Below are positions 1-49,216 of a stretch of 50,081 nt of DNA, piece by piece; within the stretch, counting starts at the first letter, position 1; each line of letters begins with the position of its first letter. The notes under the pieces are model-generated. The model did no database searches. It saw only the letters and a list, made by a program, of their open reading frames with translations, and was not told the origin of the DNA. The stretch is from a virus (taxonomy: Duplodnaviria; Heunggongvirae; Uroviricota; Caudoviricetes), in IMG/VR virus record IMGVR_UViG_3300017565_000017, positions 192,779 to 242,859 of that record. The stretch is one strand, 5' to 3'. The translations under genes and the position numbers were made by a program.

Positions 1-376
1 AGCATTTCTTCCAATCCCATCGGGACACTGGGAATACCTTCTCATCAATAAGCTCTTGTAGCGTGTCAGGCCAGTTGATAAGGCGGGCCATAGCCAGCAT
101 AACCGGCAAGTTGGGATTGTCCTCGTACTTTCGGATGATATTGTCGATGATCCAGATCGATACGGTGTCGAGTTGCCGATAAATATTACAAAATCGATTC
201 TCAAGCAGTACTGGATCCTGAGTCCATGGTTTATCTAGACCACGCGCTCGGCGCAGATAAACCATATGGCGCTCGATAACAAACCGAGCATGAGTGTCGT
301 AGCGGTCCAGATTATGTGGATCCGCGCACAGCAGATTGTTATCGGGTGGAATTAAAAGGAGTTGACCTTTAGCCAT
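1..376 (-). CDS. 5-hmdU DNA kinase helical-domain (aGPT-Pplase1 family) protein, N-terminal part; runs off the window edge
   Basis: Not in the ORF track; translated by hand from ATG at 376: MAKGQLLLIPPDNN...RFVIERHMVYLRRARGLDKPWTQDPVLLENRFCNIYRQLDTVSIWIIDNI...ARLINWPDTL. The ER..Y.RR..G...PWT.DP.L...RFCN.YR..D..S.W pattern is typical of this family. Confidence 0.8.
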   Translation of the reverse strand, partial: MAKGQLLLIPPDNNLLCADPHNLDRYDTHARFVIERHMVYLRRARGLDKPWTQDPVLLENRFCNIYRQLDTVSIWIIDNIIRKYEDNPNLPVMLAMARLINWPDTLQELIDEKVFPVSRWDWKKC

Positions 377-2743: not shown

Positions 2744-3892
2744 TTATTTACGAACTACTTGCGGCTTGAATTGGAAAGGAGCCATGCCTTCCGGCTGTAC
2801 CGTCTTAGTCGGTGCCGGGTTGCCAAACAAGGCTTCGGTGTCGTCACGCTGGTCGTCAGCCGGGCTATTACCCTGACCAGCCACCACAACGGGCTCGTCA
2901 TCGTCGATAATCTTCAAAACGGGGTCTTCATCAACTTCAACAGAAGCCTTCGTAGCCACCGTCGACAGAGCGGCCAGCACGGTATCGCTAGGATCTTGCT
3001 GCTCGTACTTGGTCTCAACGCGAACACGCAGTTCAGGTTCGCGCTGCTCCGTAACCGGATCAGCTACAGGTTCGGGGTCCTGCTTCATTTCTGGCTCTGC
3101 CGGAGCGATTGGCGCAGGCATTTCATCGATGAGCAGTTCCTCTTCGAAATCACCGGCCATCGGGGTCGTGAAGATAATCGAAGCAAACATACCGTCCGGC
3201 GAAACAACCGGATAGGCTCCGTGGTAAGCAACCCAATCAACCACAATCCCGTTGATCGAGAACACAGGGTAGTATCCCTGAGCTTCGCCACTCGGGGTAA
3301 ACACAGAGTTCAGATCATCTAGCGTGAAGCCGTTCTGGGCAACCACCAACTTATGACGAATACGGCTACGGGCCGGATTCTCCATGTCGATATCCGGATC
3401 CTGCTCATATTGCAGAATGCTACCCGCCAGCGTAATAGCGTCAATGACAGGCTCTTCGCTACCCGCCGCCGTAAACACGGCCACAAGTTGGGAAGGCGCA
3501 GGCTCTTCCGTCGTTCCGCCCAGATCACCCCAATCACCTTCCATCGGCTCAGCACCCTCGCCTTGAGCCTGAGATTCACTGGCGATATTGCCAACAAGAT
3601 CCTCAAGGTTTGGCTCTTGAGGAGGATCCTGAAGAGCCTTCTCAAGCATATCCTCCATGTATACGTTAATCGTGATATACTCACGATTTTCAATATACGA
3701 TTCGATCGGTACGGCGTTGATCTTGCCCATGTCGTCAAGATACACAACCATGGGCGGATTGCGCTTGGCTGCTGCGCCCTTCAGTCGGGTGTTTGCCAGA
3801 TACAGGACAGTAGATTGACGACCGGTATCTACACGACGCCAGACATGACCCTTACCAAGAAGGGCAAGAGTTTCTTTGGAAATATCAGCCAT
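2744..3892 (-). CDS. acidic hypothetical protein
   Basis: 382-aa ORF, D/E/P-rich; GGAG RBS. Confidence 0.75.
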   Translation of the reverse strand: MADISKETLALLGKGHVWRRVDTGRQSTVLYLANTRLKGAAAKRNPPMVVYLDDMGKINAVPIESYIENREYITINVYMEDMLEKALQDPPQEPNLEDLVGNIASESQAQGEGAEPMEGDWGDLGGTTEEPAPSQLVAVFTAAGSEEPVIDAITLAGSILQYEQDPDIDMENPARSRIRHKLVVAQNGFTLDDLNSVFTPSGEAQGYYPVFSINGIVVDWVAYHGAYPVVSPDGMFASIIFTTPMAGDFEEELLIDEMPAPIAPAEPEMKQDPEPVADPVTEQREPELRVRVETKYEQQDPSDTVLAALSTVATKASVEVDEDPVLKIIDDDEPVVVAGQGNSPADDQRDDTEALFGNPAPTKTVQPEGMAPFQFKPQVVRK

Positions 3893-39049: not shown

Positions 39050-39093
39050 AAAGGCCGGTTAGGGGCTTAAACTACAAACCCTAACCGGCCTTT
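39050..39093 (-). terminator. 15-bp perfect inverted repeat downstream of kinase gene
   Basis: AAAGGCCGGTTAGGG / CCCTAACCGGCCTTT. Confidence 0.6.
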
Positions 39094-39144
39094 GTTATAC
39101 AACCCTAACCGCTACGGGTTAGGCTCCGGACTTGTTAACAAGTC

Positions 39145-40770: not shown

Positions 40771-41090
40771 GAGTCCGAGTCCTAGATCTAAGACCTGGAT
40801 CTTCGTCTCAGATCTGGGATCAGGATCCTCCTCCTAGATCGCGGAGAGCGACTCCGTCTCCCTGAGAGTCTACGTCTCTCCTGGATCCTGATCCCAGATC
40901 TCTGTCAGGGATCCCGGTCATGGGCGTCTATCATGGACGTCCAAGATTCCCCCTGGCCCGATCGCCGTCTGAATATTCAGATCTACGATCACCATGTGGG
41001 ATCCTGCTCATTGCTCCTAGATCCTGCTCACAGAGGGAGACTGGCGGCAACTGGATCTAGTGCATTGGACCGCGGAACTGGATCAGGGTC

Positions 41091-41636: not shown

Positions 41637-41688
41637 AAGGGCTGGCTAATACCCCTAGCCAGTAACCCTAACCGTAAAGGCAAACCGT

Positions 41689-43534: not shown

Positions 43535-43588
43535 GTGGTACGGGCTACCCCTGGCCCTAAGTAAACCCTAACCGTATAGGCTAACCCC

Positions 43589-44215
43589 ATGTCCCTCCCT
43601 CACTTCAATCCGAACACGGCCGACGTCAGCAACGTGCGGGGCGTCCTCATGAACGCGCTCCGTACGTCGGCAGCCCTGGACCAGGAACGTGCGTATTCGA
43701 CGATCACTCATGTTCTGGCTATTGCCCAGGACGTGTATGAGATTCGTCTTCATGAAATCGAGCGCATCGTTGCCAGCAGCGCCACGAATGCCATCCAGGT
43801 GTTCCAGTACATCACCCGTGCTCTCGAGTCGATTCGCAACGAGCGGTGGGAGCTGCCGAAAAACGAGCTGGCTCCGACCCATTCGTACGACACGTACCAG
43901 CTTACTCGGCTCACGATCCTTCTGTGCAACATCGTGGCGCAGGACATTCCTGTCGTTGGTCTGTACCAGCGCCATTATGAAATGGTGCCTCTCATGGATC
44001 GCTACTACATTCTGCGGGCTAATCTCGTTCGGCTCAATGCGGAGTTCGACGAACTTGAGCAGAAGTCGGATGGTGATGATGATGCTGATGAGGAGGCCAT
44101 GGAAGAAATGCGCCCGTTCATCACCCCGATCTATGACGCTGTCGAGCAGATGCGTTTGCACCTGAACAAGAAGTTGGGTTTCGTCGGCGTCGAGATTCAA
44201 GGCGCTGCCTTCTAA
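43589..44215 (+). CDS. early hypothetical protein
   Basis: 208 aa between promoter and terminator. Confidence 0.8.
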   Translation: MSLPHFNPNTADVSNVRGVLMNALRTSAALDQERAYSTITHVLAIAQDVYEIRLHEIERIVASSATNAIQVFQYITRALESIRNERWELPKNELAPTHSYDTYQLTRLTILLCNIVAQDIPVVGLYQRHYEMVPLMDRYYILRANLVRLNAEFDELEQKSDGDDDADEEAMEEMRPFITPIYDAVEQMRLHLNKKLGFVGVEIQGAAF

Positions 44216-44284: not shown

Positions 44285-44331
44285 GACTCCAGGTCTAAGA
44301 TCTTCGTCCTAGATCTAAGAGAGCGACTCCG
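44285..44331 (+). repeat. 47-bp GA/TC-rich intergenic box
   Basis: Near-identical to 47141-47187; 3' half also at 40836-40856. Confidence 0.85.
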
Positions 44332-46785: not shown

Positions 46786-46878
46786 ACATACATGGATCGC
46801 AAAACAGCGAACCTAACCTAGCAAACCGGGCATGGTGCCCGGTAGTAAACCTCCCACTGTAGGGAAAGGAGAAGTTCC

Positions 46879-47115: not shown

Positions 47116-47140
47116 GAGGGCCGCGTGGCCCTCTTCTTTT
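47116..47140 (+). terminator. intrinsic terminator
   Basis: GAGGGCC-GCGT-GGCCCTC then TTCTTTT. Confidence 0.85.
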
Positions 47141-47187
47141 GACTCTAGGTCTTAGATCTGAGTCCAAGATCGTGGAGAGCGAGTCCG
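47141..47187 (+). repeat. 47-bp GA/TC-rich intergenic box
   Basis: Second copy of 44285-44331. Confidence 0.85.
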
Positions 47188-47221
47188 ATCTTGATAGACC
47201 TAAACAAAGTTACAATAAAGT

Positions 47222-47250
47222 TTTACAGGCCGTTAACGTTAGGTTATAAT
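47222..47250 (+). promoter_or_regulatory. sigma70 early promoter
   Basis: TTTACA-17-TATAAT. Confidence 0.9.
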
Positions 47251-47288
47251 TACTTTACCCCTAACCCTTAGCCGTATAAGGTACTCCC

Positions 47289-47696
47289 ATGTTGCAAACC
47301 CAGACCCCGGTCCAGACCACGAAGCATCGCCGCACCCGCATGAGTAAGCCCACCTCTGTTTTGTCACGTGTTCGTTCTGCTCAGTGGGCCAAGGCCACCG
47401 AGCTCCTGTTCCGGTCTCTCACCAATTCCCGCACGTCGTTCCCTGACGAGGCTTTGGCTCTGACCTACGTTGACCGTGTCATGGAAATCGTTCGGGCCAC
47501 GCCTGCCCGCCAGCTTCAGATCCTCGAGAACTGGCTCAAGTCCCAAGACACCCACATGACGCTCGCTGTCGATTACATGGACCAGCTCTACCGCTTCTCT
47601 TACGAGGGTGGCTTGGTTCCGGTCTGTCGTGATCTGGTGGACCCGGGCGTGCGCCCGTCCCTCAATCAACTCCTTCATCTCAAGGTCCAGCTCTAA
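47289..47696 (+). CDS. early hypothetical protein
   Basis: 135 aa, AAGG RBS. Confidence 0.75.
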   Translation: MLQTQTPVQTTKHRRTRMSKPTSVLSRVRSAQWAKATELLFRSLTNSRTSFPDEALALTYVDRVMEIVRATPARQLQILENWLKSQDTHMTLAVDYMDQLYRFSYEGGLVPVCRDLVDPGVRPSLNQLLHLKVQL

Positions 47697-47727: not shown

Positions 47728-47752
47728 GGAGCCTCCCGGGGCTCCTCTTTTT
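47728..47752 (+). terminator. intrinsic terminator
   Basis: GGAGCCTC-CCG-GGGCTCC then TCTTTTT. Confidence 0.8.
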
Positions 47753-47834
47753 GTTTGTAACAAATGGGCTTTACATATAGGTAATATGTTTTACCTAGGG
47801 TTTGCCGGTATAGCCTGTTTATATGGTGTATACT

Positions 47835-48112
47835 GCGTTTGTTGGTTGCTGCCTTGCAGTAACGCAAACGCCCCCCTACAAAGCCCCTAGGGGGCGCGTA
47901 TAGGCCACAAGTTTACGGTAGGGCTGTAGTGATAGCCGGTCAGTGCGACGCAACGTCCACTCGGTATCCGCAGCCCGGTTAGGGGGAGGTTTCTCTAGGG
48001 GTAGAGAACCTCCACTCGGTTCTCAGCGCAGTGATGTGTTGAGGGTATTCGCTTCTCCCGGCGAATAGACGACCCGGTAGCTCTTAATCGAGCTACCGGG
48101 TCGCTGAGTTTT
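47835..48112 (+). ncRNA. candidate structured non-coding RNA
   Basis: ORF-free; seven consecutive hairpins ending in a 14-bp perfect stem and T-run. Confidence 0.6.
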
Positions 48113-48118
48113 TGGCCC

Positions 48119-48147
48119 TTGTTTTTGCTGGGGGCGCATGTTATACT
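48119..48147 (+). promoter_or_regulatory. sigma70 early promoter
   Basis: TTGTTT-17-TATACT, extended -10 TG. Confidence 0.75.
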
Positions 48148-48188: not shown

Positions 48189-48380
48189 ATGGAGAAAGTC
48201 CAAATCCTGCAAGAACTCCAACTCCGAGGCCAAACCCGTCCTGATTCGTGCCCCATTGTCGATGCCATTATCGACATGATCACTGATGACAACAAGTGGC
48301 CTCTGGTCCAGGAGCTGATCCAGCACTGTGCGTCGCCTCAAGATGCGGTCAACTATCTTATGGAGACTCACCATGCGTGA
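48189..48380 (+). CDS. early hypothetical protein
   Basis: 63 aa, AGGAG RBS. Confidence 0.7.
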   Translation: MEKVQILQELQLRGQTRPDSCPIVDAIIDMITDDNKWPLVQELIQHCASPQDAVNYLMETHHA

Positions 48381-48633: not shown

Positions 48634-48812
48634 CAGTCTACGGGATTGTCAATCTAATGACCAACAAGTTCCTCATGGACAAGGCTGTGCATTGGCCTGC
48701 CTTGTTCGAAACTGTGGATCTTGCGATGGAGCGACGCCGCAAGCTGTCCGCCCCCGAGTTTTGGTCTGTCGTCCCCATTCCCGTTAACGGCCCTCAAGCA
48801 GACACCGAATGA
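48630..48812 (+). CDS. early hypothetical protein
   Basis: 60 aa, 4-bp overlaps on both sides. Confidence 0.65.
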   Translation: MTVYGIVNLMTNKFLMDKAVHWPALFETVDLAMERRRKLSAPEFWSVVPIPVNGPQADTE

Positions 48813-49216
48813 TTTACGTCCAGGACCTCGACGCATTGCCTGCCGCACTCACCGCGTGGGTCGACGAAACGTCTACTCGCATCAACGCCAATACGCACTT
48901 CCGTTCGGGTGGCGAGAACAATCGTGACTGGGACTGGGAAATCTACGTGCGTCGTACCCGCCACTGCATTCGTGGCAAAGTCTATACGACAATCGATCTG
49001 GCGACTATCGGCGTTATCCCGGCTCTCCGCCGTCAAGGTATCGCCAAGCGCTTGATCGAGATTGTTGAAGCAGAAGCGGCTCGACGTCAACATATCGTTT
49101 ACGTCGAGAACGTCATCAACCCTAACCTAGAACTGTATCTAAGGAGGCGCGGCTATCAGTCAGTACATTTCGATCAGCACTTCGGACCCACCCTAGCGCG
49201 GGATCCCGCCATCTAG
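48809..49216 (+). CDS. GNAT-family acetyltransferase
   Basis: LATIGVIPALRRQGIAKRLI acetyl-CoA motif A; N..L..YL.RRGY motif B. Confidence 0.8.
   Translation: MIYVQDLDALPAALTAWVDETSTRINANTHFRSGGENNRDWDWEIYVRRTRHCIRGKVYTTIDLATIGVIPALRRQGIAKRLIEIVEAEAARRQHIVYVENVINPNLELYLRRRGYQSVHFDQHFGPTLARDPAI

Follow-up and report, generated by a model that had tools for sequence, protein, structure and literature searches.

The window, that is, the whole 50,081-nt stretch of DNA analyzed here, makes up the final 50 kb of a phage record of 242,859 bp. The DNA polymerase of this phage is nearest to that of Achromobacter phage Motura (52%), followed by those of BcepSauron, BCSR5, and RSL1 (44 to 47%), and its presumed capsid protein shares 63% identity with the Motura counterpart. 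By its sequence, the source can be assigned to an uncultured, Motura-related jumbo phage of 243 kb. Its genome carries 25 tRNA genes, one of which (genome positions 129464-129539) has a CUA anticodon (amber suppressor-like). Promoter regions avoid GA/TC genome-wide, with 53 free tracts of at least 70 nt versus 1 in Motura; these GA/TC-free tracts, which reach 205 nt, mark promoters and are common to the related loci L010, L016, L019, L020, L036, and L044, but not to Motura. A gene for a 5-hmdU DNA kinase helical-domain protein at window positions 1-376 fits base hypermodification. We also observed a GA/TC-rich element of ~60 nt in three same-orientation copies (47141-47205, 44285-44330, and 40771-40840), two of which have a terminator immediately upstream and a GA/TC-free promoter downstream; it is also carried by short contigs in runs X15, X19, and X20. 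Run X20, an RNA run by guess but probably DNA, covers 47130-47306 and thus none of the RNA described below, and no RNA run was listed for this part of the genome. The retention of the element in L010, L016, and L019 without the hairpin seen in the window suggests that it is probably an element of the DNA whose defining feature is the density of modification.

The RNA described here lies among short plus-strand genes, each with a sigma70-like promoter, that are likely to be of the early type. It occupies the gap between the genes for a 135-aa protein (47289-47696) and a 63-aa protein (48189-48380). The description of this gap in the initial annotation as free of ORFs stands, and a small-ORF reading was rejected, as no ORF is common to the homologs. 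Two to three genes downstream of the RNA in all near homologs is a gene for a GNAT-family acetyltransferase (PF13508, PF00583; window positions 48809-49216), possibly a host-takeover enzyme.

The upstream 135-aa gene is followed by a plus-strand intrinsic terminator (47728-47752), a hairpin with a U-run that is kept in the homologs and isolates the RNA unit. Next come a palindrome, TGTAA-N10-TTACA (47756-47775), which is the single such site in the genome, is kept in the near homologs, and is absent in the distant locus L036, and a 15-bp box (47780-47794) that is near-invariant in the near homologs and unique in the genome. The palindrome is a candidate regulator site for the promoter of the RNA; GacA and TyrR boxes were considered for it and set aside, its spacer being two bases longer than what we take to be that of those boxes. 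A box loosely resembling the elements at 47756-47794 is found at genome positions ~87390-87420. Although no clean -35/-10 pair had initially been recognized, a conserved -10 hexamer, TATA(C/A)T, is present on the plus strand at 47829-47834; it has no sigma70 -35 element. At the same place, L036 has a plain TTGCAA-17-CATAAT promoter.

With a start probably near 47841 and a U-rich tail (48109-48113) as the probable 3' end, the RNA would span 47841-48112 of the plus strand. The next gene has its own promoter, with a -10 element at 48142-48147, and this succession of U-tail and separate promoter argues that the RNA is a stand-alone unit rather than a cis-leader. A reverse-strand promoter driving a leader-like transcript was also rejected, as that strand shows no -10 element and many GA/TC there. 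The RNA had been thought to follow the longest GA/TC-free tract. That tract (47747-47931; 184 nt) is the longest in the window and ranks fourth in the genome, but it covers the first ~90 nt of the RNA instead of preceding it; in the near homologs, the first 80-98 nt of the RNA are GA/TC-free.

Fold and conservation of the RNA

The gap can be assigned to a stand-alone plus-strand RNA gene of about 270 nt that belongs to an uncatalogued, conserved family. The predicted minimum free energy is -140.9 kcal/mol (z = -6.5), and none of 200 shuffles is as stable. The plus strand folds better than the minus strand by 11-29 kcal/mol in every homolog tested, and the strain variants 48047A>G and 48093C>T give G-U pairs on the plus strand only. 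These one-sided G-U changes, together with the GNRA loop and a UUCG loop in L010 and L016, indicate that the structure is that of a plus-strand RNA, in line with the initial reading of its strand.

From 5' to 3', the predicted fold begins with a variable domain (47835-47907) of two hairpins, with a C-rich loop at 47884-47889 and no conserved sequence. This is followed by arm 1 (47912-47920), whose core UACGGU (47914-47919) complements the loop ACCGUA of the leaders described below; helix P4 (47921-47976), which keeps its closing pairs and ranges from 18 to 78 nt in length; arm 2 (47977-47984), whose core GUUAGGG (47978-47984) complements the anti-SD strand of the leaders; and helix P5 (47985-48013), whose AGGGGU tip (47997-48002) complements the C-rich loop of their 5' hairpin. 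The three words, which are predicted to be unpaired, are unchanged in all seven lineages, and the helix that separates the first two shows a fourfold range. The 3' part forms a four-way junction (48014-48109) of P6 (48014-48019 with 48104-48109), P7 (48020-48045, with a GNRA loop), P8 (48046-48067, with a pyrimidine loop), and P9 (48070-48103).

Six of the seven stems proposed at the outset recur in this fold, namely, 47835-47871, ~47872-47894, 47985-48013, 48046-48067, and the perfect 14-bp stem at 48070-48103, and that placed at 48022-48043 extends to 48020-48045 with its GUGA loop and G-U pairs. The hairpin at 47922-47937, in contrast, is an alternative fold that clashes with the covarying helix 47921-47926/47971-47976 and is absent in L010, L016, and L019. 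A 10-mer noted as repeated does occur at both 47956 and 48011, but it is not conserved: the first copy is altered in the strain L007 and absent elsewhere, which suggests that the repeat is due to chance. The -10 element at 47829-47834, the closing helix that makes the four-way junction, and the helix separating the guide-like arms had not been recognized before.

Six further lineages have homologs, and of these, L036 and L044 are distant. The syntenic loci, reached through relatives of the flanking proteins, are L007 (a 98% strain), L020, L010, L016, and L019, each with a gap of 470-490 nt at the same place. A covariance model of the 3' part (142 columns) retrieved L036 with 66 bits (E = 3e-14) and L044 with 24 bits (E = 1e-4), both E-values being rough. 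Both hits lie near remote homologs of the upstream gene, and the gene order around the RNA differs in each. Both distant loci have arm 1 at its expected position even though the model does not include it, which provides an independent check. The homolog in L044 (5640-6420) occupies a 780-nt gap, has a much longer P4 and P8, and is followed by further downstream sequence.

In a set of six sequences, compensatory changes are seen in 19 of the 60 predicted pairs. When a 55-pair structure was specified for the same six, 99.7% of cells pair, exceeding all 500 shuffles and all slid controls, the events being fewer than the cells because the sequences form about four clades. With L036 added, compensation is seen in 22 of 49 pairs, and pairing is kept in 98.5% of cells in the 3' helices, in an alignment that leans towards the structure since it was fitted to the model. 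Covariation stands well above both controls. The proposal of a novel structured plus-strand ncRNA is supported by synteny, by covariation, by the want of any Rfam or ARAGORN match, and by the absence of a conserved ORF.

Searches against Rfam at gathering and E-value thresholds, covering the window and the six homolog loci, gave only subthreshold matches, and blastn against GenBank phages gave none. Pattern scans of IMG/VR, JGI metagenomes, and GTDB returned no hits or chance hits (L021, L045, L046, and L077-L088), which have neither a model score nor leader enrichment. Searches for related loci with single proteins recovered none, and no paralog of the RNA was found in its own genome. Neither the RNA nor the repeated leader motif was detected in Motura, BcepSauron, RSL1, BCSR5, or 24 IMG/VR relatives, many of whose records are fragments; the presence/absence pattern amounts to one clade versus the rest.

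Leaders complementary to the RNA

The motif CCCTAACC lies 8-29 nt before an ORF in 25 of its 40 genome copies, compared with 1 of 40 for its complement and a background of 11.7% (symmetric test). Sense copies outnumber antisense copies by 16:1 in L010 and by 17:1 in L016, and in each, the RNA itself accounts for the one antisense copy. L036 and L044 carry the same leaders. We found that the invariant words of the RNA complement, in collinear order, a leader of two hairpins carried by promoter-proximal mRNAs: read 5' to 3', arm 1, arm 2, and the P5 tip are antiparallel to and collinear with the leader hexaloop, anti-SD strand, and 5' loop. An example of a predicted target leader (43538-43591, plus strand) has a 5' hairpin with a C-rich loop and then an SD-locking mini-hairpin; other motif-bearing leaders are at 41666, 42393, 44422, 45630, 47259, 48157, 49376, and 49955.

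In the 45 promoter-linked leaders, a hexaloop (mostly ACCGUA) sits on a predicted stem whose 3' strand is the SD, which mostly measures 3-4 nt. The SD-locking stem has at least 4 bp in 29 of the 45, compared with 16.1 on shuffling of the halves (0 of 5,000 shuffles), and these stems covary, with at least six complementary stem types. The predicted mini-hairpins are weak (-1 to -4 kcal/mol) and are missing from 16 of the 45. Of the 26 longer leaders, 19 start with a 5' hairpin bearing a C-rich loop. Separately, the gene for a 69-aa protein has a long structured leader (46786-46878), kept in L010, L016, and L019, that ends in a variant SD-locking hairpin. Hairpins formed by the leader motif and its own complement occur at window positions 39050-39125 and genome positions 3496-3590, the only other clusters of the antisense word.

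Binding of the RNA core, calculated with a stand-in helix for P4 and with kissing loops ignored, is predicted to average -10.4 kcal/mol for promoter-linked leaders versus -5.8 kcal/mol for other genes (P = 9e-9). Leader binding exceeds all 20 dinucleotide shuffles in six of the seven phages, the exception being L020, with four leaders. Base composition contributes much of the binding energy: shuffles reach -9 kcal/mol versus -11 to -13 kcal/mol for the leaders, a sequence-specific excess of 2-4 kcal/mol. The predicted complementarity falls on the leader loop and the anti-SD strand and not on the SD core, and the duplex would end 0-2 nt from that core, where it can cover the first A/U bases of the SD. 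On binding, the predicted cost of opening the SD drops from 3.7 to 2.0 kcal/mol, being lower in 35 of 44 leaders and higher in 5, although leaders and lineages are related and such counts overstate independent events; the cost of opening the region from SD to AUG is predicted to rise in 12 of the 44. The arms being invariant, covariation between arm and target is unavailable as a test. Pairing of the leader or arms with 16S helix 45, which they may resemble, was set aside, the order not being collinear with the SD.

Possible modes of action and relationship to known systems

These complementarities make it probable that the RNA base-pairs with the leaders. More tentatively, and somewhat short of a probable conclusion, we propose that it is a trans-acting activator that unlocks the shared leaders of promoter-proximal, early-type mRNAs. 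The case for activation is that the complementarity of the RNA is to the loop and to the occluding strand, that the lock covaries, and that the predicted SD-opening cost falls. In the conceivable pathway, the AGGGGU tip would kiss the C-rich loop of the 5' hairpin in the leader, arm 1 would use the ACCGUA loop as a toehold, and displacement of the anti-SD strand by arm 2 would give a duplex of 11-13 bp, with P4 looping out of it to form a three-way junction. With the SD freed in this way, dozens of early genes would show a joint rise in translation; the 3' four-way junction and U-tail would serve for stability or for binding a protein. The usual pairing site of activating sRNAs is upstream of the RBS (PMC7534054), and they require an inhibitory structure that already exists (PMC12281614); such upstream pairing may also repress (PMC7534054). 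A regulon-wide lock and key, in which one split-guide, kissing-loop RNA licenses SD-locked early mRNAs and possibly recruits ribosomes via the four-way junction, is conceivable but doubtful.

The same pairing might also have the opposite sign, the accumulating RNA shutting off early translation by blocking the 30S footprint beside the SD. Such an RNA would be a counterpart of T4 RegB whose hairpins only display loops for fast capture, and we regard this as possible, if on the unlikely side and somewhat less likely than activation. The site of pairing is roughly 13-25 nt upstream of the start codon, the duplex would abut the SD, several leaders have a second ACCGUA site for arm 1 overlapping the AUG, the locks are weak, and a promoter without a -35 element and with unique boxes in the near homologs is compatible with delayed expression; further, phages need early shut-off (T4 RegB; PMC3014915), and most sRNAs repress (PMC12281614). 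Yet the predicted pairing leaves the SD core free and involves the strand occluding the SD, covarying SD-locking stems would be a cost without obvious use for a repressor, and the L036 RNA stands behind a canonical early-type promoter.

It is improbable that the invariant words pair internally (AGGGGU or arm 2 in a pseudoknot with the 5' C-runs) or between copies, making the RNA a protein scaffold, a decoy, or an RNA-only assembly, with the leader match reflecting a common vocabulary of GA/TC-free words. C-runs do occur 5' of arm 1 in every homolog, often in loops, arm 2 is predicted to be mostly paired internally in L019, L036, and L044, and TAGGG/CCCTA words are common in modification-free tracts; the pairing model also leaves the four-way junction, the GA/TC-free 5' part, and the partial internal pairing of arm 2 unaccounted for. 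However, the internal partners differ in place between homologs, UACGGU has no consistent internal complement, and both words come together in only 7 of 3,594 genome windows, the others being mostly opposite leaders. The bipartite anatomy might instead point to an adaptor, the arms catching leaders and the four-way junction binding the ribosome or S1 so as to steer ribosomes to phage mRNAs, with leader SDs being short because leaders must stay GA/TC-free. Both the short SDs and the genome-wide avoidance of GA/TC in promoter tracts agree with this, but the P8 loop is not kept in L044 and we know of no adaptor RNA of such a kind; we consider both the adaptor and its explanation of the short SDs quite improbable. 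That there is no RNA gene at all, the gap being an intergenic cluster of terminators, DNA hairpins, or protein-binding sites, is hardly credible: the first 90 nt lie inside a DNA-level GA/TC-free tract, but the one-sided G-U changes throughout, the GNRA and UUCG loops, the long-range closing helix, the 22 compensated pairs, and the RNA's own promoter and tail all speak against it.

In its build, the RNA is reminiscent of the C4 antisense RNA of phages P1/P7, which likewise presents two single-stranded guide segments in a helical frame. Both are trans-acting phage RNAs (here by prediction) whose targets are phage mRNAs, close to where translation starts (RF01695; PMC2864571, PMC8198154). C4 represses one immunity operon, whereas the predicted targets here are dozens of dispersed leaders, and the present RNA is several times longer, forms a separate transcription unit, and has no Rfam match, the RF01695 threshold not being reached in the window or the six homolog loci. 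There is no c4-icd-ant operon around it, the flanks being unrelated early-type genes with their own promoters and no PHROG match; two unpaired segments complementary to target sites are present as arms 1 and 2, by analogy only. In its predicted action, it resembles DsrA and RprA on rpoS, anti-antisense activating sRNAs that pair with the SD-occluding strand upstream of the RBS. As in such activators, its predicted site is upstream of the RBS and opposes the strand occluding the SD (PMC7534054, PMC12281614). It differs from DsrA and RprA in being phage encoded, with a split guide and a kissing loop, and in its predicted lock, a 4-5-bp hairpin repeated across the regulon. The inhibitory structure over the SD that such activators act on is predicted, with covarying stems, in those 29 of 45 leaders, where it is weak. 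Loop kissing followed by strand invasion is typical of CopA/CopT and RNAI/RNAII, which are cis-encoded, fully complementary, and single-target. The pathway proposed for the present RNA would have the same two steps. T4 RegB and RegA offer a parallel in that many early mRNAs are subject to one phage factor by way of a feature that they have in common where translation starts; RegB and RegA are proteins that repress or cleave these mRNAs (PMC3014915), and the regulator predicted here is an RNA.

Other classes fit poorly, in agreement with the initial view that the RNA does not look like a tRNA, a tmRNA, or a recognizable riboswitch. There is no ARAGORN or Rfam call for a tRNA, tmRNA, or tRNA-like RNA, and the four-way junction has arms of 11, 7, and 14 bp with no conserved T-loop or CCA. 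A riboswitch or cis-leader is disfavored by the U-tail followed by a separate promoter and by the inconsistent downstream gene order in L036 and L044. The loops (GGGG, GUGA, pyrimidine-rich, and variable) lack the repeated GGA of CsrB/RsmZ-type sponges, and no Rfam model of known self-cleaving ribozymes matched the window or the homolog loci. A literature search on the RNA and the motif returned no description, the catalogue of Fremin et al. (PMC10690425; candidates up to 151 nt) lying outside the comparison. By analogy, then, the RNA may be classed as a trans-acting base-pairing sRNA with C4 of P1/P7 nearest in build and the anti-antisense activators nearest in predicted action. What would be new are a guide split in two, a kissing loop as a third element, covariation of the SD lock, and the case for activation that follows from these.

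Described phage sRNAs mostly target host genes or one or two phage switches (PMC12197685), and in the lytic model T4, early genes are controlled by proteins (PMC3014915). The parts of the present system are short and defined, and the lock/key pair would serve as an orthogonal riboregulator. If the proposal holds, a whole class of phage mRNAs would carry a private leader code addressed by an RNA, which would constitute a different layer of control, and an activating RNA of this kind would be unusual.
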